A DNA stretch of 64,000 nucleotides from a virus (taxonomy: Duplodnaviria; Heunggongvirae; Uroviricota; Caudoviricetes). Numbering within the stretch: the stretch's first letter is position 1; each line of letters opens with the position of its first letter. The stretch is taken from the IMG/VR virus record IMGVR_UViG_2740892441_000001; one strand, 5' to 3'. The notes under the pieces are model-generated. The model saw only the letters and a program-made list of their open reading frames with translations, had not been told where the DNA came from and searched no databases. Both the position numbers and the translations under genes were made by a program. This document shows positions 4,839 through 63,146 of this stretch, in pieces.

Positions 4839-4936
4839 GTCTGGGCATGTCTTACTAAGCCTGCTTCCGTATATATTTAATAAGTTACTTATTATTTATA
4901 TATACGGAAGCAGGTCTTTAAATAACGTCCCAGACC
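4839..4936. repeat. Long near-perfect palindrome (CCTGCTTCCGTATATAT ... ATATATACGGAAGCAGG) with outer GGTCTGGG/CCCAGACC arms
   Basis: Read directly; lies between stop of 4939-5205 gene and the terS promoter region; a second copy of the same arm sequence is at ~35979-36037. Confidence 0.7.
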
Positions 4937-4938
4937 GA

Positions 4939-5205
4939 TTACATCACCAGTAACTTCGCTTTGGCTCGACCTAAAGTGGTTAACCCAAGAGTCCGGCGGT
5001 GATAGCGATTGTCACTGCGTTGGCGCGTATGCCCTTTCTCCACCAGCCCCTTTTTTATCAGAGCGCGAATTGAGAACTGGATACTTTGCTTTGTTGTCTT
5101 GTACGGCAAAACTTCAAGCAATTCGTCCAGATCAAGTAGATGACCTCGCTCATAACCGAGATTGAGCGTTTTGATGATGTCCTTTTGTTTGTCGGTTAAC
5201 GTCAT
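4939..5205 (-). CDS. Small putative DNA-binding protein (winged-helix-like)
   Basis: 88 aa, basic C-terminus; first gene downstream of the 5215-8112 operon. Confidence 0.45.
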   Translation of the reverse strand: MTLTDKQKDIIKTLNLGYERGHLLDLDELLEVLPYKTTKQSIQFSIRALIKKGLVEKGHTRQRSDNRYHRRTLGLTTLGRAKAKLLVM

Positions 5206-5214
5206 GGCAAATCC

Positions 5215-6105
5215 TTATGCCGGTAAAGCAATTTCTAACGGTTTATCCAAAGGTTGTTTGTCGAATGCCAGCAGTGGCAGCGTGTCAGGCAGTCGACGAC
5301 CAAAGTCAGGGTTTCGATACACACCATACAACGGAGACGTAAAGCTCAGGTTGTGAATGTCCTTGAGCAGCTTCACAATGCTGGCCTCGTCCACCAGACT
5401 GTCGGCAATGTCCTGAATCGTCGTGCCACGATTCCGCCCAGCTTTTGCCAGGGAACTGTTCTTGTGGTAGTCCGCCACCAGATCACGCAGTGCACGGCGA
5501 CGACGTGACTCGCTCATTGCGAACAACTCTTTGACGATCGCCTCGTTATCACCCGGGTCGGAGCGGAAATGGCGCTGGAACACACGCAGTGCACTTTCAT
5601 AGCTCTTCGGTCGCTCAGGGCGGATGAACTTGAACCCTGCTTTCATGGCGAAGGGATTGTATTTGCTCATCGAGGATTGGATCTCAATGATTGGCCGGTC
5701 ATGCATCCTGCTAACCAGGTTAATCATTCGATAAGAGACGCCTACGCCACGGTACTGAGTATCCACAACTGAGCGGCTGATCACCGCAAAGTTGTTATTC
5801 ACGTACCGGCCCCAGTACTGGTTAGCCACGGTGGTATTGGTGGTTGGTTTCAACTTAGGAAACATGCGATGGCGAGGTGCCAGCAGAAGTTTCGGGTAAG
5901 CCATAACCACGACGCCCACCAGACGGTCATCCAGTTCGCAGCGATAGTATGTTGGCGCGAAAGGTTTGCCGTCTGTTTTGTAGTGAAGCGACTTAAGAGC
6001 GTGCCAGTCCTCTACAGTTCCCTTTGTGACAGTCATTCGCTCCAGAAAGTCCAGATGACGCGGAAACTCTTCAGGGCGGTAGCGTTTAATGATGATGTCC
6101 GTCAT
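5215..6105 (-). CDS. Hypothetical protein (possible acyltransferase-like fold)
   Basis: 296 aa; stop/start overlap with upstream ATPase gene implies operon; weak GNAT-like segment RCELDDRLVGVVVMAYP. Confidence 0.5.
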   Translation of the reverse strand: MTDIIIKRYRPEEFPRHLDFLERMTVTKGTVEDWHALKSLHYKTDGKPFAPTYYRCELDDRLVGVVVMAYPKLLLAPRHRMFPKLKPTTNTTVANQYWGRYVNNNFAVISRSVVDTQYRGVGVSYRMINLVSRMHDRPIIEIQSSMSKYNPFAMKAGFKFIRPERPKSYESALRVFQRHFRSDPGDNEAIVKELFAMSESRRRRALRDLVADYHKNSSLAKAGRNRGTTIQDIADSLVDEASIVKLLKDIHNLSFTSPLYGVYRNPDFGRRLPDTLPLLAFDKQPLDKPLEIALPA

Positions 6106-6767
6106 GAATGGACCTCATCATAACTACCATTGTGATATTCCACCTTCACGCGTTCTTTGTAGTGCTTGGTGATCTGCATATCCGGGCGCAGCGCGTTCTT
6201 CAGGTCTTCGTGAGTCGTCGCCACCATTACCGTCGCACCAACCTTTCGAGCGGCACGCTGGAGGTTAGATGCCACAACCTGAGCGGTTACACGGTCTAGA
6301 ACAGCACCGAACTCGTCAGCAGCCCACACTTTAGCGCCTGACTCAATCAGTTTGGCAATCTTGAGACGATATTTCTGACCGTCTGACATTTCAGAAGGCT
6401 TGCGAACAAACAGATATGCATCGTTCAGACCTGCCATAGATAACAACCCAAGCGCATCACTGGTAGTTTTGCCCAGTTGGTCAATGACGTTAACCTCATT
6501 ATCGAAGGTAAAGTCATCAATAGAAGCTACAGAAAGCCCTTCATCCTTCATCTGGCGTTGCAACTCGCGCAACACAACGGATTTACCTGAACCGGATTGG
6601 CCGGTGATGTACACCACATCGCCCTGCTTCACTTCCAGCTCCAGATTGTCGTAAAGCGTCCACTCTTTTTCGTCCAGGCCAAGCCCGAACGACTCAGCGA
6701 TTTCCAACGTGCGCGTGGTTTTATTTACGCGTGTCTGAAACGATACGTTGATGATGTATTTGCTCAT
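6102..6767 (-). CDS. ABC-type ATPase domain protein (soluble)
   Basis: Walker A GQSGSGKS, ABC-signature-like MSDGQKYRL, Walker B VWAADEFGAVLD, H-loop-like ATTHED. Confidence 0.65.
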   Translation of the reverse strand: MSKYIINVSFQTRVNKTTRTLEIAESFGLGLDEKEWTLYDNLELEVKQGDVVYITGQSGSGKSVVLRELQRQMKDEGLSVASIDDFTFDNEVNVIDQLGKTTSDALGLLSMAGLNDAYLFVRKPSEMSDGQKYRLKIAKLIESGAKVWAADEFGAVLDRVTAQVVASNLQRAARKVGATVMVATTHEDLKNALRPDMQITKHYKERVKVEYHNGSYDEVHS

Positions 6768-20271: not shown

Positions 20272-22305
20272 TTACTTAACCTGGTGGCCAGGTTTAGCAC
20301 CAGCATCCGGGCTTAACAGGAAGATGTCTTTCCCGCCGGGGCCAGCAGCCATCACCATGCCTTCGGAGATACCGAAACGCATTTTACGCGGAGCCAGGTT
20401 AGCCACCATAATGGTGTGACGGCCAATCAGTGCCTGTGGGTCTGGATAAGCGGAACGGATGCCTGAGAAGACATTGCGTTTTTCACCGCCGAGATCCAGC
20501 GTCAGGCGCAGCAGTTTGTCAGAACCTTCAACAAAGTCTGCGTTTTCGATCAGCGCCACGCGCAGGTCAACTTTGGCAAAGTCGTCAAAGGTGATGGTTT
20601 CCTGAATCGGGTCGTCTGCCAGCGGGCCAGTAACTGGCGCGGCAGTAGCTTTCACTTCTTCTTTAGACGCTTCCACCAATGCTTCCACCTGTTTCATGTC
20701 GATACGGTTATACAGTGCTTTGAACGGATTCACTTTATGGCCCAGCAGCGGTTGCTGGATACCATCCCAGGTCAGTTCTGTATTCAGGAATGCTTCTGCA
20801 CGTTCAGTCAGTTTCGGCAGTACCGGCTTCAGGTACGTCATCAGCACGCGGAACAGGTTAATGCCCATAGAGCAAATCGCCTGCAGATCGGCATCGCGTC
20901 CTTCCTGCTTCGCCACCACCCACGGAGCCTGTTCATCGACATAGCGGTTAGCCAGGTCAGCCAATGCCATGATTTCACGGATAGCTTTACCAAATTCGCG
21001 GCTTTCCCATGCTTCGCCAATCACTTCAGCGGCATCAGTAAAGGTTTTGTACAGTTGCGAGTCAGCCAGTTCGCTTGCCAGCACGCCGTCAAAACGCTTG
21101 TTGATAAAGCCTGCATTACGGGAGGCCAGGTTAACCACTTTGTTCACGATATCGGCATTCACGCGCTGAACGAAATCCTCCAGGTTGAGATCGATATCAT
21201 CAATGCGCGAAGAGAGTTTCGCAGTGTAGTAGTAACGCAGGCTGTCGGCGTCAAAATGATTCATCCAGGTGCTGGCTTTAATAAAGGTGCCGCGAGACTT
21301 GGACATCTTCGCGCCGTTCACCGTCACATAGCCGTGAACAAACAGGTTGGTCGGCTTGCGGAAGTTGCTGCCTTCCAGCATGGCAGGCCAGAACAGGCTG
21401 TGGAAGTAAACGATATCTTTACCGATGAAGTGGTACAGCTCGGCGGTGGAGTCTTTCTTCCAGTATTCATCGAAGCTGGTAGTGTCGCCGCGCTTGTCGC
21501 ACAGATTCTTGAAGGAACCCATGTAGCCAATCGGTGCGTCCAGCCAGACGTAGAAATATTTACCCGGCGCGTTCGGAATTTCAAAACCGAAGTAAGGTGC
21601 GTCGCGGGAGATATCCCACTGTTGCAGACCAGATTCAAACCACTCCTGCATTTTGTTTGCCACCTGCTCCTGCAACGCACCGCTGCGGGTCCATGCCTGC
21701 AACATTTCGCTGAAAGAGGGCAGATCAAAGAAGAAGTGTTCAGAATCACGCATTACCGGCGTAGCGCCAGAAACTACCGATTTCGGCTCAATCAGTTCAG
21801 TCGGGCTGTAGGTCGCGCCGCAAACTTCACAGTTATCGCCGTATTGATCTGGCGCTTTACATTTCGGACAGGTGCCTTTCACAAAACGATCCGGCAGGAA
21901 CATGCCTTTTTCCGGGTCGTACAACTGAGAGATAGTGCGGTTTTTAATAAAACCGTTCTCTTTCAGGCGAGTATAGATAAGCTCAGACAGCTGGCGGTTC
22001 TCTTCGCTGTGCGTCGAGTGATAGTTGTCATAGCTGATGTTAAAGCCTGCGAAATCAGTCTGGTGTTCCTGGCTCATTTCGCCAATCATCTGTTCCGGTG
22101 TGATACCAAGCTGCTGTGCTTTCAGCATGATCGGCGTACCGTGGGCATCGTCGGCGCAGATGAAGTTGACCTCGTGGCCGCGCATTCGCTGGTAACGGAC
22201 CCAGACATCAGCCTGGATGTGCTCCAGCATATGGCCGAGGTGGATTGAGCCGTTAGCGTACGGCAGCGCGCACGTCACCAGAATTTTCTTCGCGACTTGG
22301 GTCAT
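20272..22305 (-). CDS. metG: Methionine--tRNA ligase (methionyl-tRNA synthetase), enterobacterial type
   Basis: 677 aa from [26 protein letters not shown]... with HIGH (HLGH) and KMSKS motifs; recalled as near-identical to E. coli MetG; start reassigned to 22305. Confidence 0.97.
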
Positions 22306-22462
22306 AGTAGGCATTACTTCTTTGTAGTGAAAAGGGGCTTGATAGTAACAAAATGGCCTTATGTCTGCCATGTGATAACAGCATTTCTCATAAATGATTA
22401 AATGTCGTAGCTGGAGTACACTACAAGGCGACAATTGCGCAAATTAAAATAAAGGAGACGGG

Positions 22463-37803: not shown

Positions 37804-38352
37804 TTACACAATTTCAGAGGGTAATTTAAAAAATCCGTACTTATTACGTGCCTTAAAGAAGCATTGCATCATTAAGTTTGTGTCATATAAGGCACTATGT
37901 GCTTTGGCATGATCGTATATAAAGCCAAGAGAGAAGGCCAACTCTTCAAGGCGGGGACGTTTACCGTCTTCTGTGGCCCACAGGGAAAATAGAGTGTCAA
38001 TCAATGGGATGTCTGGAAGCGAAAAACCGTAACTTTTCAGCTCATGCCTAATAAACGGAATATCGAACGCTTCGCCGTTGTGGGCTATCCAAATATCGGA
38101 AGAAGAGAGATACGAAGCGACAGATGAAGCGTGATCGGCTAGTAACGGCTCGGCGGCTAAATCTTCAAGACTGATGCCGTGTACCGCTTGCGCTTTCGGA
38201 TCGATACTGCGACGCGGGTTGAACCGCATTGCAAAACTATCAACCATTGTCTGTGTCTCAATTTCGTACTTCACCATTGCGATTTCAATGATTTTATGGC
38301 CTGAGAGGAAATCAAGACCTGTTGATTCGATGTCCACCCCTGTAGCAATCAC
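37804..38352 (-). CDS. DnaQ-like (DEDD) 3'-5' exonuclease
   Basis: Exo I VDIESTGL, Exo II IAHNGEAFDIPF, Exo III HSALYDT motifs. Confidence 0.8.
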   Translation of the reverse strand: MIATGVDIESTGLDFLSGHKIIEIAMVKYEIETQTMVDSFAMRFNPRRSIDPKAQAVHGISLEDLAAEPLLADHASSVASYLSSSDIWIAHNGEAFDIPFIRHELKSYGFSLPDIPLIDTLFSLWATEDGKRPRLEELAFSLGFIYDHAKAHSALYDTNLMMQCFFKARNKYGFFKLPSEIV

Positions 38353-39143
38353 TTTTTATCTCCTTTTACTGGTCGTTTGGACGGTGTGAAGATGGCAGCT
38401 TCAACATCCCACCCCCTCAAAATTCGCTGCGAGATAATGGTCGCAGTCAAGCCAACCTCTCTAGCCCATTCGGTAATTCGCTGAGTTCTGCCGCGACACT
38501 CGATCAGACGCTTACTATCTCGGTTGGCATACGTGTCGACGCTGGCGTTAAGCGCGCGATCTAATGGCCACCCTTTCTTGATTCGATAGTGAAGAGTTGA
38601 TGTCTGAATCCCGGCTCTTTTAGCCCATTGTGAGAGAGTCAGCTTTTCCCCCTTATGCTCCAAAATTAAGTTTGAACGCGTGTTATTGGCCTGTTCTTCA
38701 AAAGTCGCCCATCTGCAATTTTCAGGTTCGTAGTCACCATTCACATCTTTGCGATCAAGAGACATCCCCTCTGGTCGCTCTCCCATGTCAGCATAAAAGT
38801 TTTCAAATATTTGCCACCGCTCGCAGACTTTGATACCTCGGCCGCCATACCACTTATAGGCGTGATGGGTTGGTTTTTCACATCGTTCCCGCATACCCAG
38901 CCATATACGATAAATTGGCGTTTTACTCATACCATGAGGCTTTACGCTACGGCGATGTGCGTTGTAGACACAGCCACACGATATTGTCGCCCCGTGATTT
39001 AGCTTCCCGTAACTAACCAGGCAGGTGTTGCCGCAATCGCAGATGCAATCCCAAAGTCGCCCTTGTTTGTTTGAAATACCGGAATATTTAAGTGCAACCA
39101 ACTTTCCAAAACGTTTACCTGTTATGTCTACCGGTTGTCCCAT
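38349..39143 (-). CDS. HNH/AP2-type homing-endonuclease-like protein
   Basis: Cys cluster CICDCGN...CGC plus IYRIWLGMRERC...YGGRGIKVCERW...F.NFYADMG typical of phage free-standing HNH endonucleases. Confidence 0.65.
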   Translation of the reverse strand: MGQPVDITGKRFGKLVALKYSGISNKQGRLWDCICDCGNTCLVSYGKLNHGATISCGCVYNAHRRSVKPHGMSKTPIYRIWLGMRERCEKPTHHAYKWYGGRGIKVCERWQIFENFYADMGERPEGMSLDRKDVNGDYEPENCRWATFEEQANNTRSNLILEHKGEKLTLSQWAKRAGIQTSTLHYRIKKGWPLDRALNASVDTYANRDSKRLIECRGRTQRITEWAREVGLTATIISQRILRGWDVEAAIFTPSKRPVKGDKK

Positions 39144-39152
39144 TACTACTCC

Positions 39153-39571
39153 TTACAACTTCTTAGCGCCCTTAAGTAGTGCGCTACGTACAAATTGAGC
39201 CGCTTTTTTCAAAGTTTCTTCACTGGTTTCACAGACAACCGGATCTTTCCACTTACCTGACGCCGTGTTGAGAATGTTGATTTGGTTGCTATCCAGACAA
39301 ACAGAGACGTAAAGCACCGTGCCACCAGCCAGCATCAAATGCATAGGAAACAGAGGCTTTTTACTGCCTTCACTGAACTGAGACATGGCGATGTTAATGC
39401 TTCACCTACTTGTGCGCCAACAAGCCCTTGCGCAATTTCGAATACGGTACGAATAGCCAGACGAGCCTCTCGATCGCTCATAAGCGACCGGGAATGTTCG
39501 TCCGCTACACGAATCAAAGCCTCTGTTGTTTTCCGATCCAGTTCATCTTCAAGTAACATTTCACTAAACAT
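39153..39571 (-). CDS. Hypothetical protein; two overlapping ORFs (39335-39571 and 39153-39386), possible frameshift
   Basis: ORFs overlap in different frames; no motif recognised. Confidence 0.3.
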
Positions 39572-39632: not shown

Positions 39633-40277
39633 CTAATGAACGGTCACTCGGCCACAGAACCGGTTTTCTATCTTTTCTACAGCGTTATCTAGCATTCTCA
39701 TCACTGATCTGGCTCTTGCTTCAACCGTGCGATATCGGTTGGAAACGACGAAGGTTTGCAGATCCCCCCTTTGCGGATGCAGGTGAATTTTTGTCAGTTC
39801 CCCGCACATCAACGCATCAATACGAGCGACATACAGACGGTCTAATGATGCTCGTTGTGATCGCAAGTAATCTCGCTCTGAGAGAGCGACTCCCGGGCGT
39901 AAGCCAGCAATGGCGTTAAAGTTTGAAATAGCAGTTTTGTGGCAAAACTTTTCGATATCGAGGGCTAACTCAATACATCGATCTTCATTGGTATGGCCGA
40001 CCAAATCCAACGTGTAGGCCATAACATCAGCAGGTGTGCGATCGATAACAAAGCCTTCAACACCACGCGTAAGTAGCTCTATATGCTTTGCTATTTCCAT
40101 TTGAATCTGAAGCCGCTCATATAGAGGCATAGACTCACCTACTCGAACACCGAGTCGGCTCATCAAACTTCCGACACCAGCATCCACGTAAGGGATTCCG
40201 TAATGTTTGTCGATATATTTTGCCAGGGTTGTTTTCCCACTGCCCTGAGCACCAGTGATCCCAATCCGGTAATCCAT
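39633..40277 (-). CDS. P-loop NTPase, probable (deoxy)nucleotide kinase
   Basis: Walker A GITGAQGSGKTT at N-terminus; small size and position within the nucleotide-metabolism cluster. Confidence 0.55.
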   Translation of the reverse strand: MDYRIGITGAQGSGKTTLAKYIDKHYGIPYVDAGVGSLMSRLGVRVGESMPLYERLQIQMEIAKHIELLTRGVEGFVIDRTPADVMAYTLDLVGHTNEDRCIELALDIEKFCHKTAISNFNAIAGLRPGVALSERDYLRSQRASLDRLYVARIDALMCGELTKIHLHPQRGDLQTFVVSNRYRTVEARARSVMRMLDNAVEKIENRFCGRVTVH

Positions 40278-40752
40278 TACGACCTTCTGTATACGATCTG
40301 CGAAAAGCCAGGCTCTTCCTCGCTGGCTCGTTGGGTATAAGCTGTTTCAACAGGCACAAAGCCTAAGTTACGCATCATGCTTGCCGGGAAGAATGCATCG
40401 GCGTTTGGTACATCAACGCCGATGTGGGAGAGCCAAATCTCTTCAACATGCGGCATGAATAGCGAGTAAATTTGTTCCCCGCCAATCACCCACACAGGCT
40501 CTGGTAATCGCAACACATCATCCACACCAGCAGGTAGAATCCATTTGGTACAAAGCCATGAGAGCGCGTCAAAACGAGGTTATGACGCTCTGGAAGAGGG
40601 CGTTTGAGACTTTCCATCGTTTTACGCCCCATAACGACAGTGGCGTTTTTGGTGAGTCTCTTAAATAGCTTCAGATCGGTAGAACAACGCCAGGGGAGTT
40701 CATTCGCTATGCCGATCTCATAGTTACGGCCAACAGCAGCGATCATCTTCAT
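40277..40752 (-). pseudogene. Dihydrofolate reductase, interrupted by a frameshift (or sequencing error)
   Basis: N-terminal [25 protein letters not shown]...[11 protein letters not shown] and C-terminal ORF ...[10 protein letters not shown]... are DHFR halves in different frames; junction ~40525-40565. Confidence 0.75.
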
Positions 40753-44627: not shown

Positions 44628-46942
44628 TCAGATTTTGCAGGCTCCGTCGCACTCATCTTCTGGCTCGACGGCTACAGCTTGCGTAAGTGGATTCTGCGCT
44701 TCGTCGTCATCACGCTTTCCTGCACCATCTCTGGTGTTGTGGTAGTAAAGCGTTTTAACTCCCATCTTGTAGGCGAGAAGCAAATCTGACAGTAGCGTCA
44801 TCATTGGGACTTTATCGCCTTCAAAGCGAGAAGGGTCATAGTTGGTATTGGCTGAAATAGCCTGGTCAAAGAACTTCTGGATGATCGCCACCTTTGTCAG
44901 ATAGCCGCGGTTGTCCGGCATATCCCACAGGTATTCATACTGTTCCTTCAGTTTTTCAAACTCAGGCACGACCATCTTGACGATGCCGTCCTTAGAAGAT
45001 TTCACTGACACCGGGCCACGAGGCGGTTCGATGCCGTTGGTGGAATTAGTGATCTGGCTGGAAGTCTCGCATGGCATTTGTGCCGTCAGTGTGGAGTTGC
45101 GAAGGCCGTATTTTGCAATACGTTCACGCAGTTCTTCCCACGGCATCTTTAACTCAAAGTTGGTTTCGCCGCTTTCGTCTAATGAAGAACGGTAATGGTC
45201 GATCGGCAACTGACCAATTGCGTATTTGGTCTGCTCAAACCAGTCACACTCACCTTTTGCTTCAGCAAGTCGGCAGCTGGCGTCAAGAAGGTAATACTGG
45301 ATAGCTTCGAACGTTTCATGCACCAGTTTATTGCCAGCGGTATCAGAATAACGAACGCCATTCTTTGCCAGGTAATAAGCAAAGTTGGTTACACCAATTC
45401 CCAGGCTACGACGAGCTTTGGCAGGCACTTCGGCTGCCTCCATCGGATAGTCTTGATAATCCAGTAACGAATCCAGTGCAGCAACGGCATAGAACGCCAC
45501 CTCTTTAAGAGACTCCAGTGAACGGATGGCTCCGAGGTTAAAAGCGGATAAAGTGCATAGCGCGATCTCACCGTTCGGGTCGTCGGTAAATGCCAGTGGA
45601 CGGGTGGGTAGAGTGATCTCCATGCACAGGTTTGACTGGCGAACAGGTGCAAGAGCAGGAATGAAAGCGCCATGCTCGTTAATATGATCGACGTTCGCAA
45701 TATAAATTCGGCCCGTGGACGCTCGTTCCTGCATCAGAGATGAGAACAGCTCAATGGCAGGTACTGACTTCTTGCGAATTGAATCATCGGCTTCGTATTT
45801 ATGGTACAGCTTTTCAAACAGATCCTGGTCTGTGAAGAAGGCTTCGTACATATCAGGCACATCATGCGGCTGAACAGAGTGATGTTCTCGCTTCTGACGA
45901 GTCGACGGTACATTAGACGGTTACTCATGACGCCGTAATCAAGATGGCGAACGCGGTTTTCATCAATACCACGGTTATTTTTCACCACCAGCAGACTTTC
46001 AACCTCAAGATGCCAAATCGGGTAAAACGCTGTTGCTGCGCCACCACGAACACCACCTTGCGAACAAGATTTAACAGCCGTCTGGAAATGCTTCAGGAAT
46101 GGAATAACTCCGGTATGGGTGGCTTCACCATTGCGGATCTCACTGCCCAGCGCACGGATACGGCCAAAACCAATACCAATTCCAGCACGACGTGAAACGT
46201 AGTCGATAATTGCGGCTGAAGCTGCACTAATCCCTTTCAGACTATCGCCAGACTCAATCAGCACACAACTGGAGAACTGACGGGTTGGAGTACGGACGCC
46301 GGCCATGATTGGTGTGGGCAGAGACAGCTTGAACGTACTTGTAACGTCATAGAAACCTTTGACCATCTCCATACGTGTTTTGCCCGCGCAGTCGTCTTCC
46401 CAATTCTGGAACAGACACATGCCCACCAGCATATAGATATGTTGCGGGCCTTCGTGAATCTCACCAGTAACACGGTTTTGAACGAGGTATTTGCTTTGCA
46501 ACTGCACCGTAGCTGCATAGCCAAAAAGATCGTCACGTTTCGGCTTAATGTAATTGCCGAGTTCTTCGATCTCTTCAAATGAATAATGTGTCAGCAAATC
46601 CTTGTCATAAACGCCCTTGTTAACGTTCTTGACAATGTGTTGGTAGAAGTTCGGATAGTCGTAACGACCGAAGGCATCTTTGCGGATTTTAAAAATGTTC
46701 AGGCGGGCAGCCACCTGCGAGTAATTTGGTGCATCTGGTGAGATCAAATCAGCGGCAGATTTAACCAAAGCCTCATGCAACTGGCTGGTGGTAATCCCAT
46801 CAAAAATGCTGGTCGCAGCTCCCATTGCTACAGCGGATGCGCTTACACCACGAATGCCTTCTACGCCATACATTACGACGCGGTTGTATTTTTCTTCGGA
46901 TAACGGCTCTGTTTGGCCGTTACGTTTTACGATGCTTATCAT
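44628..46942 (-). pseudogene. nrdA: Ribonucleotide reductase class Ia alpha subunit, split by a frameshift near 45860-45900
   Basis: N-terminal ORF 45734-46942 and C-terminal ORF 44628-45860 (ending ...ECDGACKI) together are about the length of E. coli NrdA but in different frames. Confidence 0.88.
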
Positions 46943-47594: not shown

Positions 47595-48337
47595 TTACCA
47601 TGTTCCCCATAGAGGGTTTTCCAATAATCTCGCCTCCAACGAATTGGCTACTATTGCCGTTTGCAACGTTGGTTGGGGATAGTTTGCAAAGTCTGAATAC
47701 TCATTTTCCTGCGTGACACGTTTATCTACGGCATGTTTAACGCCACTTGCTATGAAATGACGCATGATACCCAACAGCCTCCGACTGTCTGCACTATCGT
47801 TTGCTAAAACATGAGGGAGCTGAAGTTCGATTTCTACCATTTCTCCATACTTACCAACAAACTGTAGTTTGTCCGCACTGTACTTTTTATCCCTCCTTTG
47901 GATAAGGAAACCAGTAAAAGCATCACCTGGCGATGCCAAACTATCCACCCGCTTATTGGCAAGTCGAATAAGGTTCGTGAAAGCCATACAGTGATGCGCC
48001 CCCATTCCCCCAAAGAATCCTTCGCTATTAATGTTAAGATCTTCAGTTTCATGGGATGCAATAAACCCAGGCCCGACGTTGGGAGATATCCCCCCTCAAC
48101 AAAAGGATTAATCAGGATCGGCGCAATACATCCAGGTGGTAGTGATTTCAAACTTTGCATCAATGGTGTCTCGGATATTAGACCAAGCAACGCGGCGAAT
48201 TGTACTCCGTCAATATTGTTGCTGCCCCACAGAATACGTGGAGCCGCACCATTGGAAGTATGCCCATTGATCAGTTTTATCGACTGCATCACTGCAAATA
48301 CCTGCAAAAACTGCGAGCGGCTTAATTTAAACGACAT
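47595..48337 (-). CDS. Hypothetical protein, apparently split into two overlapping frames (47834-48337 and 47595-48005)
   Basis: Two ORFs overlap by ~170 nt in different frames between recombination genes. Confidence 0.35.
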
Positions 48338-50243
48338 AGCTGCGCCCCTCTTTAACTTCCAGCGTAATAGTTTCCCGGAACCATGACTTCATCTCTTTAT
48401 GGGAGATAATCAGCACAGTACCTCGCTCGCGAGCTTTGGACTCCAGAATACCCATGAGGCGTTCAAGACCGGCTGTATCGAGTGCATCGTCAATTTCGTC
48501 GCCGATAAACAAATCGATGTTTTTACTCGCCCGGTTACTAACCAGATCCTGCAATGCCAAAGAACACGCAATGCGAACCTTCCGCTTCTCACCACCAGAG
48601 AGGGTTTGGAACGACTTACTTGAACCTTTCTTCTGCACACTAATGTTGAATTTGTCGCGATACTCACCTTTTTTAGTGACATCCATCGTCGACCACTCAG
48701 CAGTAATGTTCCCGTCAGACAACGTATTGAGATATTCTGCTGTGCGTGTATTCAGGAAAGGCGTAACAGACGTCAAAATATGAGAACGCACCCCGGCAGG
48801 AGAGTAGACCTGACGAGCTTTTTCCAATAGCAACGTTTGTTCCTGAATAGCCTTCAACTCATCTTTTAAGGACTTGAAGGTAGACTTACTGGATACCAGG
48901 TTATCTTCGTGTCTGGCGATAAGAGCAATAAACGGATTAATCTCTTTTGATATACGATCGACCTCAGTACGAGCACGAGTCACAAGAGACTCAATAGCAA
49001 CAACCTCCTTCTCACGATGACGCAAAGATGAGAGTTGTTTCGTAAGCTCTTCAATCCGGGCAATGATAGCCGTTACATCAGGTGTCGTTTTAACAAGGGC
49101 AGACTCAATGCTTAACGCTTTCTCAAGATTCGTTTTGTGTTTAGCCATTGCCTCTGCAAGTGTCTTCGCCTGACCAATTTCCTGACGTGCTTGTTCAATG
49201 AAATTCTCCTTCACCGTTGATAGATCTTCTTCGCAGTAGGCTTTGCCACAAGTAGGGCATGGTGATCCCACTTTAGTACCAACCTCTTCTGCTTTGGTCT
49301 TAAAATTACGCGCACGGTTCATTGCATCAGCCTGACTATTTTCTGTAGCTTTGATGCTTGCCCGAATATCAGTTATCGCACCACGAACTTTGAGCAACTT
49401 GGCGTCATGTTCTTCTTTTGAGGCTAACTTTTTGCGCTCACTTTCGATTGCCTTCTCGGTATCACGTATCTGTTCGGGAAGAGTGCGGATCTCAAGTTCA
49501 ACTTCCGTTAACTCAACTTCGGCACTGGCCAGCCCAGCCAGGGCATCGTCATAACGTTTAGAACGCTCTTGCTCCCATGATTCAGAGGAGGCTTTCGCTG
49601 ACTCAATTTCTGACTGTGTTGCCTCAATGGTCGAGATTGTCGACTCCAATTTGGTTTTAACCACATCCATACGTGCGGCAGCTGCATTAGCTCGCTCACG
49701 AGCAATAGCGTAGGCGCGTGTCAGTCTGTCAACGCCAGCGGCTTCTTCTACGATGGTTTTGAGGTTTTTGTCGGACATTCCAGGTAAATCTGGCATAGCT
49801 TCTTGGCTCGCATAGATGGAAGCCATGAAAACCTCTTTAGATGCACCAATCAGGCGTTCAACGAACTCCTGCGTCAGCGTGTCCTTGCCTTTGGTCATGT
49901 CACCGTCTTCACCGCGGACGATCAGCCGGTTCTTGAACTCTTTGTGTTTACGGTGACGAATGATCGCGTATCTCTTGCCTTCATCCTCAACAGTCACCAT
50001 TACACGACAGTTTTTCTCGTAGCCTGTAGACAGCACGTCGTCACCTTTGACTCCATGCGCAGTTTCGCCATACAGACACCACATCAGGCTGTTCATCAAA
50101 GTAGATTTACCAGCGCCATTACTTGATGCGGAACTATCATCACTATTAACACCCTGAATGAGCACTAAACCACGCTGATCTAACTCGACCTCCGCGCTGG
50201 CGATAGCCATAAAATTCTCAACCTGGAGCTTTAAAAACTTCAT
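48327..50243 (-). CDS. SbcC/Rad50-like recombination ATPase
   Basis: N-terminal Walker A GVNSDDSSASSNGAGKST, long central coiled coil with CPTCGK zinc hook, C-terminal signature/Walker B (LSGGEKRKV, DLFIGDEIDD). Confidence 0.88.
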   Translation of the reverse strand: MKFLKLQVENFMAIASAEVELDQRGLVLIQGVNSDDSSASSNGAGKSTLMNSLMWCLYGETAHGVKGDDVLSTGYEKNCRVMVTVEDEGKRYAIIRHRKHKEFKNRLIVRGEDGDMTKGKDTLTQEFVERLIGASKEVFMASIYASQEAMPDLPGMSDKNLKTIVEEAAGVDRLTRAYAIARERANAAAARMDVVKTKLESTISTIEATQSEIESAKASSESWEQERSKRYDDALAGLASAEVELTEVELEIRTLPEQIRDTEKAIESERKKLASKEEHDAKLLKVRGAITDIRASIKATENSQADAMNRARNFKTKAEEVGTKVGSPCPTCGKAYCEEDLSTVKENFIEQARQEIGQAKTLAEAMAKHKTNLEKALSIESALVKTTPDVTAIIARIEELTKQLSSLRHREKEVVAIESLVTRARTEVDRISKEINPFIALIARHEDNLVSSKSTFKSLKDELKAIQEQTLLLEKARQVYSPAGVRSHILTSVTPFLNTRTAEYLNTLSDGNITAEWSTMDVTKKGEYRDKFNISVQKKGSSKSFQTLSGGEKRKVRIACSLALQDLVSNRASKNIDLFIGDEIDDALDTAGLERLMGILESKARERGTVLIISHKEMKSWFRETITLEVKEGRSYVV

Positions 50244-52816: not shown

Positions 52817-53479
52817 TTAAACCCTGAGATTACGTTTAAAACGTCTCAGTGGCTTTTTACGCGCTGCGTTTATGCTTATGACGCCAGCTTTTGGACGTGG
52901 GTCAACAAGGTTAAGCTCTTCTTCGCTGTGGTATTCGAGGTCGAACTCACGTTTTACATGTCTGATGTAGATTGCGGTGAGCAGGCTATCTTTGGTCAGA
53001 AAGTGTCCGTAGGATTTGCGGATCACTTCTTCTACCTTCTCGATTTTCTCACCACCCATACAGAGATGATTAAACCGGCTGTGTTTCCGCAACATTTCGT
53101 CTACTGGGCCTGAGTAAACCTTGTCTACTTTCCCAAAACGGATGATTTTCCCTGTGTCTGCGGATACGAGGCAAATCAGCTTGTCTGGTGATAAACGATC
53201 TCGCCACGTCACACCTGAACGGAGTGTGTTGAAGTAGGGCGCATCCAATCCGATGATCGGTTTACGAAATGCGAGCAATGGAACGTACCTGATACAACTA
53301 TTCAAATGAAAGTTCACACCAGCCTTATCAAGTTTAATTCTGGTTTCGTAGATCGGGCACTTCGCCGCTATACCGCAGATATCACAAAGTAACTTCTGCT
53401 TATTCAGGTTGGAATTTGATTCGATAGTGTAGGAGCCGTCCTCAAGACGACGAACCCAGCGCGTGCGTTTTAGATCCAT
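52817..53479 (-). CDS. Hypothetical protein
   Basis: 220 aa ORF with Cys pair CDICG; no family recognised. Confidence 0.5.
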   Translation of the reverse strand: MDLKRTRWVRRLEDGSYTIESNSNLNKQKLLCDICGIAAKCPIYETRIKLDKAGVNFHLNSCIRYVPLLAFRKPIIGLDAPYFNTLRSGVTWRDRLSPDKLICLVSADTGKIIRFGKVDKVYSGPVDEMLRKHSRFNHLCMGGEKIEKVEEVIRKSYGHFLTKDSLLTAIYIRHVKREFDLEYHSEEELNLVDPRPKAGVISINAARKKPLRRFKRNLRV

Positions 53480-58505: not shown

Positions 58506-60845
58506 TTAATCTTCTAGTTCTTCTGTTGGTGATGTCTTCTCTCGTCGGTCATCTATCGCCTGTAACGCAGCAATGATTTCAGCCAGTGGCTTCTCCCGAT
58601 ACATCTCGACGATCTGCGATTTGGTGTATTTCTTGTCACCAATTTCAACTCTCCCGCTGGCGTTCTTTGGCAGGTATCCTTCTTCCAGCATGTACTCGAC
58701 GAGCGATTCGATAACGTCGAGGCCACGAGTAGGATCGAAGTAGAATTTCCAGGTGCATTTGCCATACGGTGGTGCAACTTTGTTTTTGATGCACTCTGCG
58801 CCTACGTCCTGACCGATCTTCTCTTTCCCATCCTTCATCACCGATGCACCGAGACGGATGCGCACAGAAGCGTAAAACTTCGGTGAATCGCCGCCTGGAG
58901 ACGTAGTAGGGTCGCCAAACATTACACCGATTTTTGTGCGAACCTGATTCAAGAAGATGATGCAGGCGTTGTATTTGCGTGCCCACAAAGCCAGAGTAGG
59001 GAAGTTCGCACTCGTCGCACGCGCCAGTGCCGTATTGTCGTTCATGTTTAGCTGATCTTTGTCTTTGGCTGTGCCTTCAGCCATCTTTTCGAACTTCTCG
59101 GCTTTGGAGTTCGGAACCATAGACGCAAGAGAGTCAGCCACGATACAGATAGGTGCTGATTCGGGGATAAGCTCTTCATCACGAACCAATTTAAGTATTG
59201 TGCCGATCAACTCTACAGAGTCTTCGAAGGTATCTGGCTGCTTGTATACCCACTGACCGTCATCCTCATCTGCATTCAAACCATTGGCTACAGCCAGGCC
59301 AACGTCAAAACTGTTTTCATGATCGAGGAATACCGCCAGACCATCTTGTTTTTGAGCGGAGATCATCGCTGCTGTTGCAAGGAATGTGTTGTGGCTGATA
59401 ATCCCGTTAGACCAGAAAGAGTGTGTTTCCGGCATCGCTACGTCGAACGTTGGTGCTTCACCTTCCTCAATAGCCACGACTTCGTCGTAGAACAAGTTAG
59501 AGCCAATTACCGCTGCCAGTTGTGCAAACAGATGCTCGTTAAAACGATTCTTTCTGCCAATGAAGGAGACATAGATTTCTCGCAGTTTGTCTATTCCGAC
59601 ACGATCGCCGCGGCCAATAACGTGGTCTACCAGAGCGTAGTCTTCACGGGTGGTCTTGGTGAGCGACTCGTAGAGTGATTTCACTAAGCCGCTGATGTGC
59701 GGAACATAGCCTGAGTAAGTGCGGTCAAAACCAATGTCCCGTTTGGTTGCCACTGATAAACGTGCCGGAGATTCGAAACCAATCGTTGACAGAAAAAGGT
59801 CGTAATTAGAGCCACTGAATGACAGCCGGTAATATGTATTTTCATAACCCGCGACGTGTTTTTCAGAGATAGTTGACGTAATCCCCAGATTCAGGAGCAT
59901 GAGGCGAATTTGCTGTAGCAGCAGCCCACTCGCGCTCACAACCTCAATGCAGCGACCATCATTGACGTGGCATTCCAGCTCAAAGTAGCCGCGAAGGAAT
60001 GCAATTTGAGCCTCGCTATTGGCGCGACGCACACTCAACGGAACCTGCTTGCCAGCAGCTTTCTCATACTCCAGACCATATTCTTTAAAAAGCAGCGAAC
60101 GCACCTCTTTGCTAAACAGCACATGGTCTTCCGAGCCGTTATGTTTTCTCGTAACTGGCATCTTGTCTGATACCAGCGAAATGAGGCGGTAGTACTCATC
60201 CTTGATGAAAGGATCTGTGTTAGAAAAATTCACTGAATTTTCAGAGGCCACGTATCCGTCAGCAATTAAATAGCCCATCAGTTTTGCGATATTGGCATCC
60301 AGGTGCTGATCGCCGAATTGATGTGTGCCAACCATTGAAGGAATCGTGTCGCCTACACTGATTTTTTCAGCATGTCGCCAGACGACATTACCTAAGTCGT
60401 CAACCACACGGATTGGGTGACGGAACGTAGCCTCGATATAACCGCCTGATGCCAGCTTAATACGCTTGAATTTGCGACGGTTGTTCCATGTCAGGTGTGA
60501 GGTCTTCTCTATCACGCCATTTTCATTGATGAGTCCAACGTTATGCTCTACATCGCGAGTAGTGCATGTCGCTTTGTACCCTTCAATCTCAAACAACTCT
60601 TTCACTGTTACCATTCCACGCTCCGTCAGCAGCATGGTGTCTGCGGTAACACATTTCCCCGCACTTGGAGGACCGAATACTTCGACGATACGACCACATG
60701 GGAAACCGCCATCGTAACGACCGGAAATCGCTTTGTTTAACGGAGGAAAGCCTGTGTCAATCCAATGAGTTACTTTCTGAATTTCGTCGTTGCTACCGAT
60801 TTTCTTTTTCAGAGCAAGTGCCAGTGCGGATTTTCCTTTTGCCAT
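58506..60845 (-). CDS. RecA/UvsX-like recombinase containing an intein in the Walker A P-loop
   Basis: 779 aa; extein reads FGPPSAGK | C...(422 aa)...SHN | TFLATAAM; removing residues 65-486 leaves ~357 aa, RecA-sized. Confidence 0.88.
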   Translation of the reverse strand: MAKGKSALALALKKKIGSNDEIQKVTHWIDTGFPPLNKAISGRYDGGFPCGRIVEVFGPPSAGKCVTADTMLLTERGMVTVKELFEIEGYKATCTTRDVEHNVGLINENGVIEKTSHLTWNNRRKFKRIKLASGGYIEATFRHPIRVVDDLGNVVWRHAEKISVGDTIPSMVGTHQFGDQHLDANIAKLMGYLIADGYVASENSVNFSNTDPFIKDEYYRLISLVSDKMPVTRKHNGSEDHVLFSKEVRSLLFKEYGLEYEKAAGKQVPLSVRRANSEAQIAFLRGYFELECHVNDGRCIEVVSASGLLLQQIRLMLLNLGITSTISEKHVAGYENTYYRLSFSGSNYDLFLSTIGFESPARLSVATKRDIGFDRTYSGYVPHISGLVKSLYESLTKTTREDYALVDHVIGRGDRVGIDKLREIYVSFIGRKNRFNEHLFAQLAAVIGSNLFYDEVVAIEEGEAPTFDVAMPETHSFWSNGIISHNTFLATAAMISAQKQDGLAVFLDHENSFDVGLAVANGLNADEDDGQWVYKQPDTFEDSVELIGTILKLVRDEELIPESAPICIVADSLASMVPNSKAEKFEKMAEGTAKDKDQLNMNDNTALARATSANFPTLALWARKYNACIIFLNQVRTKIGVMFGDPTTSPGGDSPKFYASVRIRLGASVMKDGKEKIGQDVGAECIKNKVAPPYGKCTWKFYFDPTRGLDVIESLVEYMLEEGYLPKNASGRVEIGDKKYTKSQIVEMYREKPLAEIIAALQAIDDRREKTSPTEELED
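59388..60653 (-). mobile_element. Intein (422 aa) with LAGLIDADG homing-endonuclease domain inside the recombinase gene
   Basis: N-terminal Cys after GPPSAGK, C-terminal His-Asn followed by Thr; LAGLIDADG-type motifs LMGYLIADGYV and IAFLRGYFELE. Confidence 0.8.
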
Positions 60846-60847
60846 GA

Positions 60848-61120
60848 TCAGGCTCCTTTTGTTTCGTTGATTCGTTTTAAAGCGGCGGATTCGTCGAATA
60901 CAATCGCATCGTGGTTAAGGAGTCTGGATACACGAGCGAGGATTTTTACGACCTGCTCGCTGACTAATCCAAACTCGCGATCTGTCGCTTTCATTCCGGC
61001 AGCGCCTAGAATTGACGGCAGTGCGATGACAGCGTACTCACCGTGATAAAAGACAATCTCTTTTGCCAGTTGGGCAGGGGTGGTTGTAGCGCCATTAATA
61101 ATCGATTTAAGCATTAGCAA
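60848..61120 (-). CDS. Hypothetical small protein
   Basis: 90 aa ORF between flap endonuclease and recombinase. Confidence 0.4.
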   Translation of the reverse strand: MLMLKSIINGATTTPAQLAKEIVFYHGEYAVIALPSILGAAGMKATDREFGLVSEQVVKILARVSRLLNHDAIVFDESAALKRINETKGA

Positions 61121-62108
61121 TACCTTTCGAATGGAAGAACAAACACTTCAAGGTCTTCAAGGAACGAACGGAAATTCAGCTCGTAGCACAGTTGCTCGAA
61201 TGCTTTCACGTCACGATTGCCTTTGATTGTTTCGATTTCGGTAGGCGGAAACTTCGTCTCAATCAGGTTCATTAGCGTGATGTTTCTCTTGAACGCTTCG
61301 AGCATTCGACAGCCTGTTTTCTCGTTGAAGGCATTCTTCGCTAGTTTGTTGAAGGCGGTCTTATGGCGTCCTTTGTCAACCACGATTGAGCCGTCGTTGA
61401 TGCCGCGTACCATCGTTGCGACACTTCCCCATTCATGCAGCAGCTCTTTCGCACCGCCAGCACCAATGCCACCAACACCGCTAATGTTGTCCGATTTATC
61501 GCCTTGTAATGCTTTTGCTTCCAAAAATGCGCGAGGAGTAGCGAATCCTGTCAGCTCCGCAAATTGCTCAAAATTAACCTGCTTGTTTTTGGCGTCTTCG
61601 CGCAGGCTTACCCAGCTTACGTTTTCGCGAACTAACTGAAGCCAGTCGCTATCGCCTGTTAACAGATAGATGTGTTCAACGGTTGGCTGCGCTGCCATGC
61701 GGGATACCAGCAGCCCGGCCAGATCATCCGCTTCTGCATCTTTTGCAATGAGTTGGGTAACTCCAAGCGCGGTCATCATTTTGAGGATGTATGGCTTCTG
61801 GATAGCAAAGCCTTCCTTCATCTTTTTCATATCAGGATCGTCGTCGCGATTTGCTTTGTAGTCCGGGTAAAAGTCGCGACGCTTGTCACTAAATCCATCC
61901 CAAAGAATCATAGGTCGGGCATGGAGGATGGAGGCATAACGACGGACGTTCTTAACAAAGCCGAAAGCAGCCTGTACTTCCATTTCGCCGTTGTGCAATT
62001 TGTCAGATTGTTGGTGGTAATAACCCAGCTATTGCCATCTACGAAGAGATAATTCACCGGTACATTCCTTCCAAAAAGTAAGGCGTCCGTAGACGCCTTA
62101 CTGGTCAC
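61114..62108 (-). pseudogene. 5'-3' exonuclease / flap endonuclease (FEN), N-terminus in a different frame (frameshift near 61990-62000)
   Basis: ORF 61908-62108 encodes ...YLFVDGNSWVI (FEN N-terminal motif); ORF 61114-61998 carries KDAEADDLAG and GDKSDNISGVGGIG (helix-hairpin-helix). Confidence 0.75.
62072..62098 (-). terminator. Rho-independent terminator (AGGCGTCTACGGACGCCT + TACTTTTT)
   Basis: Hairpin plus T-run after SSB gene. Confidence 0.7.
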
Positions 62109-62117
62109 GTAATGGGA

Positions 62118-63146
62118 TTACAGAGAGTCCAGCTCTCTCAGTAGGTCATCCAGACCTTCATCTTCCGTCGCAGATGCGGCTGCTACAGATGTCGCTGCGA
62201 CTGCTTCAGACTCTTTGACTGATACTGCAACGGCAGCGGAACTTGCTTCTGGTTTAAATTCAGTTTCAACGGCACGGAGGATTTCTTCATCAACCAGACT
62301 GGTTGGTTCAGAAGCCGGTGTGTGCGCGGTTGCTACAGCCGTCGCTCCTTCTGTATGACCAGTGACAGAGCCAAATCCAGGTAGTGCCGCAGCCGATGTT
62401 TTCGCGGTTGAGGAAATTGCTGGTGCAGATGCTGCGGCAGTTGGTGCAGCGATGCCAATCAGACGACCCATAGTGCGAACTGTCGACAGAAGACGAGTTT
62501 CATCAGCCTGATTTGCGTATGCGATCAGATCATGCTGGGTGTTCCAGAATTTATCTTCGATATCGCCTTTGTAGACTTTACGCTTAGGCGAGACGTCATA
62601 TTTGGTATCGCGACCAGAGCCAGTACGTTTAATCAGGAATGCGTAGCCTTCCTCTTTGCTCAGTGGATTGCCGATATCATCAGCGATGTCTTCGGTGATT
62701 GCTTTGCAGATATCATCGAATACAGTAGACGGCAGCTCGATTAACTGGCATTTCTCAGCATCTGCGAAATCCTCACGAGCAGAAAGAATGCCGTTGACCA
62801 GGTAGCGAGGAGTGGCACGCATTTGACCGATGCGTTCTTCCATTGCTTTGTTACCCTTGTGACGAGCGCGACCTTCCATCACCATTTCGCATAGCTGACA
62901 AGCGCGACCGTGAGTATGTTGCTCACAAATATAAGCGTTGGTTGCTTCTTTACCTTCCTCGTTCTGATACTTAACGTAGTGCATACCGAAAGTCTGGAAG
63001 AACTTACCGTTTGGGTCGTCTTTATTCGGGAAGATGCGGATATAGTTGACGCCGTCTTTTAAGCGAGTCAGATCAACGTTGTTGCCACGTTTGGCGGCAA
63101 TGTCTTCACGAGTTTTGTTAAGCAAATCAAGTAATGTCTTAGACAT
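62118..63146 (-). CDS. Single-stranded DNA-binding protein, T4 gp32-like
   Basis: His/Cys cluster YICEQHTHGRACQLCE consistent with gp32 zinc site; Ala/Ser-rich linker; acidic C-terminal tail EDEGLDDLLRELDSL. Confidence 0.65.
   Translation of the reverse strand: MSKTLLDLLNKTREDIAAKRGNNVDLTRLKDGVNYIRIFPNKDDPNGKFFQTFGMHYVKYQNEEGKEATNAYICEQHTHGRACQLCEMVMEGRARHKGNKAMEERIGQMRATPRYLVNGILSAREDFADAEKCQLIELPSTVFDDICKAITEDIADDIGNPLSKEEGYAFLIKRTGSGRDTKYDVSPKRKVYKGDIEDKFWNTQHDLIAYANQADETRLLSTVRTMGRLIGIAAPTAAASAPAISSTAKTSAAALPGFGSVTGHTEGATAVATAHTPASEPTSLVDEEILRAVETEFKPEASSAAVAVSVKESEAVAATSVAAASATEDEGLDDLLRELDSL

Follow-up and report, generated by a model that had tools for sequence, protein, structure and literature searches.

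The split flap endonuclease gene in the record of an SSU5-like phage-plasmid is probably a sequencing or assembly artefact

Introduction

Why should a flap endonuclease (FEN) gene lie in two reading frames? The question is raised by a viral DNA of 64,000 nucleotides (IMG/VR record IMGVR_UViG_2740892441_000001; the whole stretch is referred to as the window), in which a first-pass annotation, made from the sequence alone, described two open reading frames (ORFs) for one such gene, 61908–62108 (−; 66 aa, with ...VNYLFVDGNSW...) and 61114–61998 (−; 294 aa). Both ORFs are present as described. FEN appears split because the assembled sequence is without one C at 62027/62028, and with a probability of roughly 0.85 the split is a systematic sequencing or assembly/consensus artefact, the gene being intact in nature.

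The FEN gene and its protein

DNA of the FEN region was 99% identical to that of Escherichia phages Cyrano, PhiR41_1 and CMS-2020a and 82% identical to that of Salmonella phage SSU5, and matches were also obtained to 218 records of E. coli plasmids in RefSeq complete genomes and to 737 plasmids in PLSDB. These similarities to both phages and plasmids place the window in an E. coli phage-plasmid of the SSU5-like kind (described in PMC7969092). The same gene is found at the same position in Salmonella phage SSU5 (SSU5_058, YP_006906690.1), Cyrano (CYRAN_54, CAH1234456.1) and the E. coli plasmid pLAO7 (WP_021512304.1); as a 5'-3' exonuclease of phage-plasmids it is known and annotated as a matter of routine. 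Biochemical work on the SSU5-group enzyme was not found in the literature searched. In relatives FEN is a single 945-nt coding sequence of 314 aa with a GTG start, beginning VNYLFVDGNSLGYYHQQSDKLHNGEMEV...; the window gene, read as 61114–62057 (−) with a GTG start at 62057–62055 and a stop at 61116–61114, is 1 base short of this length. The SSU5-group genes share with the window the GTG start, the Shine-Dalgarno-like sequence (GGAAGGA at 62066–62072 (−), 8 nt 5' of the start and invariant in close relatives) and the upstream hairpin; the window gene differs from them in having one C fewer at 62027/62028, which splits its ORF. Apart from this frameshift, one residue distinguishes the window protein from Cyrano FEN (Pro to Ala in ...SRMA[P/A]QPTVEH).

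On the minus strand, codons 1–10 (V N Y L F V D G N S; 62028–62057) are in the original frame, and codons 11–314 (LGYYHQQSDKLHNGEMEV...ERYC; 61117–62028), which encode H3TH and what remains of the nuclease domain, form an open frame shifted by −1 from that of the start. After the lesion the original frame runs on into an out-of-frame tail without family match (WVITTNNLTNCTTAKWKYRLL...PDL*; 61908–62027 (−)). With one base restored, the 304-codon open frame at 61117–62028 becomes one of 334 codons. The upstream ORF at 61908–62108 does hold the FEN N-terminus, as the first-pass annotation had it, but its part at 62058–62108 is intergenic and contains the terminator-like hairpin, the start being GTG 62057–62055 according to the relatives.

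The identification as FEN and the two-frame layout were borne out by profile searches and by alignment to T5 FEN. PF02739 matched an intact relative with an E-value of 1.9e-24 over profile positions 2–159, and the 294-aa ORF of the window with an E-value of 3.5e-22 from profile position 28 only; PF01367 (C-terminal H3TH, SAM-fold DNA-binding) matched window ORF and relative alike, above the gathering score (E-value 4e-12). A Pfam search of the 49-aa product that runs from GTG 62057 through the out-of-frame tail gave no match. The T5 D15 flap endonuclease (PDB 1EXN, 5HMM, 1UT5) belongs to the same family and has the same PIN-like 5' nuclease and H3TH domains, but is a distant homologue only, and the FEN of the window and the SSU5 group is without its N-terminal extension. 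The alignment to T5 FEN that had been proposed as a check was obtained with structures 1EXN and 5HMM (phmmer E-value about 3e-15, residues 2–217), and the acidic motifs VDG, lwD.G, EADD, GDsDw and GDksDN aligned with their T5 counterparts; around VDG the alignment reads NYLFVDGNSLGY / NLMIVDGTNLGF. The Asp that aligns with the VDG-motif Asp of T5 FEN is encoded by GAT at 62039–62037 and is stranded in the upstream fragment; we take it to correspond to the metal ligand D26 of T5 FEN. With the PIN-like 5' nuclease domain, H3TH and the aligned metal-binding acidic residues all present, the protein is assigned by sequence to the FEN family, and the true gene would encode a 314-aa enzyme with all metal-binding acidic residues.

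The missing base

Alignment with Cyrano, PhiR41_1, CMS-2020a and SSU5 showed that one C of a CC dinucleotide is missing at 62027–62028 (−). On the sense strand AGCC|TGGG has become AGC|TGGG (on the plus strand, CCAGGCT has become CCAGCT); relatives read AATAGCCTGGGT at this site (AAT AGC CTG GGT), against AATAG-CTGGGT in the window, where the FEN reading frame is thus interrupted by a 1-base deletion. The frame switch had been placed near 61990–62000. It lies about 30 nt upstream, at the missing C between 62028 and 62027, and position 61998 is merely the first start codon of the mechanically called downstream ORF. Similarly, the proposed motif YLFVDGNSW holds as the conserved N-terminal motif except for its W, which comes from the wrong frame; what is conserved is VNYLFVDGNS-LGYYHQQSDKLHNGEMEV.

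The gap at 62027/62028 was seen against all three complete relatives and ten further contigs, and the deletion was absent from every relative checked individually (approximately 180 sequences). For the 1301-nt query, all 60 top matches listed from the E. coli genome collection, and likewise all 60 from the plasmid collection, extend over 1302 nt. Public contigs were scanned with a variable-gap exact pattern accepting either allele: CC was present in all 44 contigs having the site (31 from IMG/VR and 13 metagenome contigs), the deleted allele was found in 0 contigs of IMG/VR and the metagenomes, and the same either-allele pattern gave no match in GTDB representative genomes. FEN was 314 aa long in 10/10 contigs that encode an identical 779-aa RecA-intein protein, and the 294-aa and 78-aa fragment proteins of the window were not on record.

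Other private deletions in the window

The whole window was compared with three complete relatives (pLAO7, pAMPD01 and Cyrano; 97–99% identity), 46.5 kb being covered by all three. This analysis of private indels rests on agreement among the three, because in three annotated collections no relative was more than 99% identical over long stretches. Ten private indels were found in the 46.5 kb, all of them 1-nt deletions (at 1637, 18270, 35124, 35271, 39399, 40533, 45868, 48083, 52851 and 62028), with 0 insertions. The FEN deletion is absent from relatives and is one of about ten error-like deletions of the same type, so that an N-terminus placed in another frame is most likely no feature of the biology. 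Restoring one base re-fuses the genes for the portal (1254–2827; 417 + 138 to 530 codons), nrdA (44628–46942; 430 + 403 to 772 codons) and DHFR (40277–40752; 100 + 91 to 161 codons), as well as a 140-codon ORF, a 264-codon ORF and FEN; the private deletion near 52851 changes a C-terminus.

As a control, mechanically called ORFs of 150 aa or more were searched by tblastn. In the window 4/47 large ORFs were split by frameshifts, against 0/77 and 0/84 when Cyrano ORFs were compared with the other two relatives and 0/72 and 0/75 for pLAO7 ORFs. 'Internal stops' in this control were confined to unannotated ORFs antisense to annotated genes or to the non-conserved upstream extension of one annotated gene, and no genuine nonsense codon was found in the window. 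Many frameshift deletions together with no genuine nonsense codon are unlike the signature of ordinary gene decay, and any 'pseudogene' or 'split gene' finding in the window is to be regarded with suspicion.

A second assembly of the strain

An exact 289-aa FEN fragment with an ATG start is on record in the Logan assembly of sequencing run SRR1596056. Over 16.8 kb, contigs of this run and the window differ by 0 substitutions, against 1–2% for other relatives, so that the Logan assembly represents the same strain. Over these 16.8 kb the two assemblies differ by three single-base indels: the window deletion at 39399 is absent from the Logan assembly, and two deletions are present only there, one at 39764 and one at 48851, the latter disrupting an SbcC gene that is whole in the window. 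Deletions common to both are those in FEN (contig SRR1596056_456, as in the window), nrdA and DHFR and that at 48083. Thus 3/7 of the deletion sites covered by both assemblies are assembly-dependent, and since two assemblies of one strain differ only by indels, the underlying data are indel-noisy. A literature search on SRR1596056, SRR1599274, CBWH01 and GCA_000529975 found no publications.

Sequence context and recurrence of the deletions

A G(2–3)CT context was present at 9 of 17 distinct deletion sites in the noisy assemblies, against an expectation of 4% (of all runs of 2 nt or longer) to 10% (of G/C runs). This motif was spotted post hoc, and in the independent set, which is small, it fits 2 of 4 new sites. 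On the opposite strand G(2–3)CT reads AGC(2–3), which the FEN site AGCCT fits. The contexts are AGGCT at 62028, GGGCT at 45868 and 52851, TGGCT at 39399, GGGCT (reverse complement) at 1637 and, in the Logan assembly, AGGCT at 48851. Every deletion in the window lies in a run of 1–3 nt, and none of the 259 runs of 5 nt or longer carries one. The long-homopolymer error model, the usual picture for Ion Torrent and nanopore data, fits poorly with the absence of private deletions from runs of 5 nt or longer. Nanopore error related to Dcm methylation was considered for the CCTGG/CCAGG at the FEN site and dropped in favour of G(2–3)CT, the other deletion sites being without CCWGG.

Deletions of the same class were found in other public assemblies of related elements. 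CBWH010000055.1 (GCA_000529975.1), which is IMG 2617271087 (IMGVR_UViG_2617271087_000005), has deletions in the portal, nrdA and terminase genes and intact FEN and DHFR genes; IMG 2740892439 (IMGVR_UViG_2740892439_000007) has deletions in the portal and terminase genes, and SRR1599274 (SRR1599274_80) has the DHFR deletion only. In CBWH010000055.1 and IMG 2740892439 single G/C deletions occur at AGGCT, TGGCT and GGGCT sites, new sites included. The portal, nrdA and DHFR deletions elsewhere sit at exactly the positions of those in the window, another lies in the large terminase gene, and divergent elements share identical deletions without any nesting. Such recurrence, at specific sites in short runs and without nesting, speaks for systematic technical error and not for inheritance or slippage, and the presence of the same deletion class in other public assemblies suggests a technical cause shared across data sets.

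A published precedent is the comparison of Ion Torrent and Illumina assemblies of Listeria (PMC12046094), in which consensus single-base indels likewise split genes and assemblies of the same isolate likewise differ by indels and not by substitutions. In that study, Ion Torrent errors fall preferentially in long runs of A, 5.5 in mean length (PMC12046094); the deletions described here differ in lying in G/C runs of 2–3 nt with a G(2–3)CT bias.

Weighing the explanations

In the explanation that we favour, the data set behind the assembly would drop single bases in short G/C runs, preferentially in G(2–3)CT; as the FEN site AGCCT fits this context, one C of its CC would have been lost from the assembled sequence, and we infer that the missing C is present in the real DNA. 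Three lines of evidence argue for such an artefact: many lesions of one type occur in one assembly against intact relatives; two assemblies of one strain differ by nothing but indels (at the FEN site itself they agree); and a context bias, in a motif recognized post hoc, is combined with recurrence at the same sites in unrelated samples. Against it stand the poor match to the Listeria Ion Torrent profile (PMC12046094) and the presence of the FEN deletion in both assemblies (window and SRR1596056_456), so that at least one set of reads supports it well. Should the two assemblies stem from different platforms, the four deletions that they share would be real. That the lineage really lost one C and that FEN is a fresh pseudogene is, all told, unlikely. 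Such a loss would agree with the presence of the deletion in both assemblies; prophage genes carried on plasmids can decay, and as a plasmid the element might survive the loss of FEN, portal or nrdA. GTG 62057 would then give a 49-aa peptide, and a product from ATG 61983 or TTG 61998 would be without the first catalytic Asp. Yet a real loss would have to be one of at least six gene-breaking 1-nt deletions arising together, unaccompanied by any insertion or genuine nonsense codon. Replication slippage is expected to affect longer runs; here deletions in runs of 1–3 nt with 259 longer runs untouched are the opposite of it. The assembly dependence of three of the seven jointly covered sites and the non-nested recurrence of deletions at shared sites across unrelated elements also speak against real mutation. 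A variant in which the deletions are real and come from a context-specific mutational process at G(2–3)CT, recurrently (perhaps reversibly or heteroplasmically) silencing FEN, portal, nrdA, DHFR and SbcC in multicopy SSU5-like phage-plasmids, would explain both the disagreement between assemblies of one strain and the same sites being struck across lineages; we regard it as very improbable.

Two further explanations would leave the sequence as it stands and seek a function in it. The downstream ORF could be initiated independently, at TTG 61998 or ATG 61983, and be made as a working, N-terminally truncated nuclease: it retains most of PF02739 and all of PF01367, and a gene caller called the 289-aa product with an ATG start on the Logan contig. 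However, neither start is preceded by a Shine-Dalgarno-like sequence, the product would be without PF02739 profile positions 1–27, VDG Asp included, and no relative uses a short form, all having 314 aa, which makes independent initiation a most improbable account. Alternatively, a −1 ribosomal frameshift or transcriptional slippage could join the frames into a full-length enzyme, in keeping with a downstream frame that is −1 relative to the start and with the long overlap between the frames. Known genes with programmed −1 frameshifts (dnaX; the phage tail chaperone G/GT) are similar in the superficial layout of two overlapping frames only; unlike these, the window FEN has no slippery heptamer and its layout is not conserved in relatives. 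From 62057 to 61908 no X XXY YYZ heptamer was found in any frame and no homopolymer run suited to transcriptional slippage, and keeping the conserved LGYYHQ... needs a shift at AGC TGG G, which is not slippery. The two-frame layout is seen in none of the relatives, each of which has a single ORF. Programmed frameshifting is effectively ruled out by this comparison, and we give recoding of either kind next to no credence.

The main value of the artefact reading is in quality control. Context-biased single-base deletions create false pseudogenes (FEN, portal, nrdA, DHFR, terminase, SbcC) in the window and in no fewer than three further public assemblies of related elements, and scans for split genes, recoding or pseudogenization on such records yield false positives. 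If the FEN deletion were real, it would merely add one more inactivated accessory nuclease gene on a phage-plasmid.

Neighbouring features and other observations

FEN is part of a recombination/replication module of UvsY-like, gp32-like SSB, FEN, small-ORF and RecA-like genes, being flanked by the gp32-like SSB gene (62118–63146) and, on the other side, by the small ORF and then the RecA-like gene (58506–60845 (−)). The latter encodes a RecA-like recombinase of 779 aa with an intein, which has a LAGLIDADG homing endonuclease and is inserted in the P-loop (GPPSAGK|C...). In SSU5 and pLAO7 the RecA-like gene is without the intein and of about 358 aa; the 779-aa RecA-intein protein of identical sequence is widespread (165 index blocks). 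Between the SSB and FEN genes a terminator-like hairpin (62079–62100 (−); 9-bp stem, 4-nt loop, followed by a U-run) was kept in relatives, as far as SSU5, by alignment. It was not reported by a simple consensus terminator scan; folding confirmed it (RNA fold −19.8 kcal/mol, z = −5.0 relative to shuffles). Its position suggests that FEN is transcribed by read-through or from a signal of its own.

An ORF of 264 aa at 38349–39143 (−), between a 3'-5' exonuclease gene and the 140-codon ORF, is missing from this position in the SRR1599274 element, pLAO7, pAMPD01 and Cyrano; its one match, to PVL_ORF50, was sub-threshold, and it may be a mobile, homing-endonuclease-like insertion. In the metG region of pAMPD01 (NZ_CP058309.1; approximately 4900–6400, corresponding to window 20275–22443) there are many private insertions and deletions of 1–2 nt, and the annotation shows several small hypothetical ORFs; either metG has decayed here or the RefSeq record is locally rich in errors.
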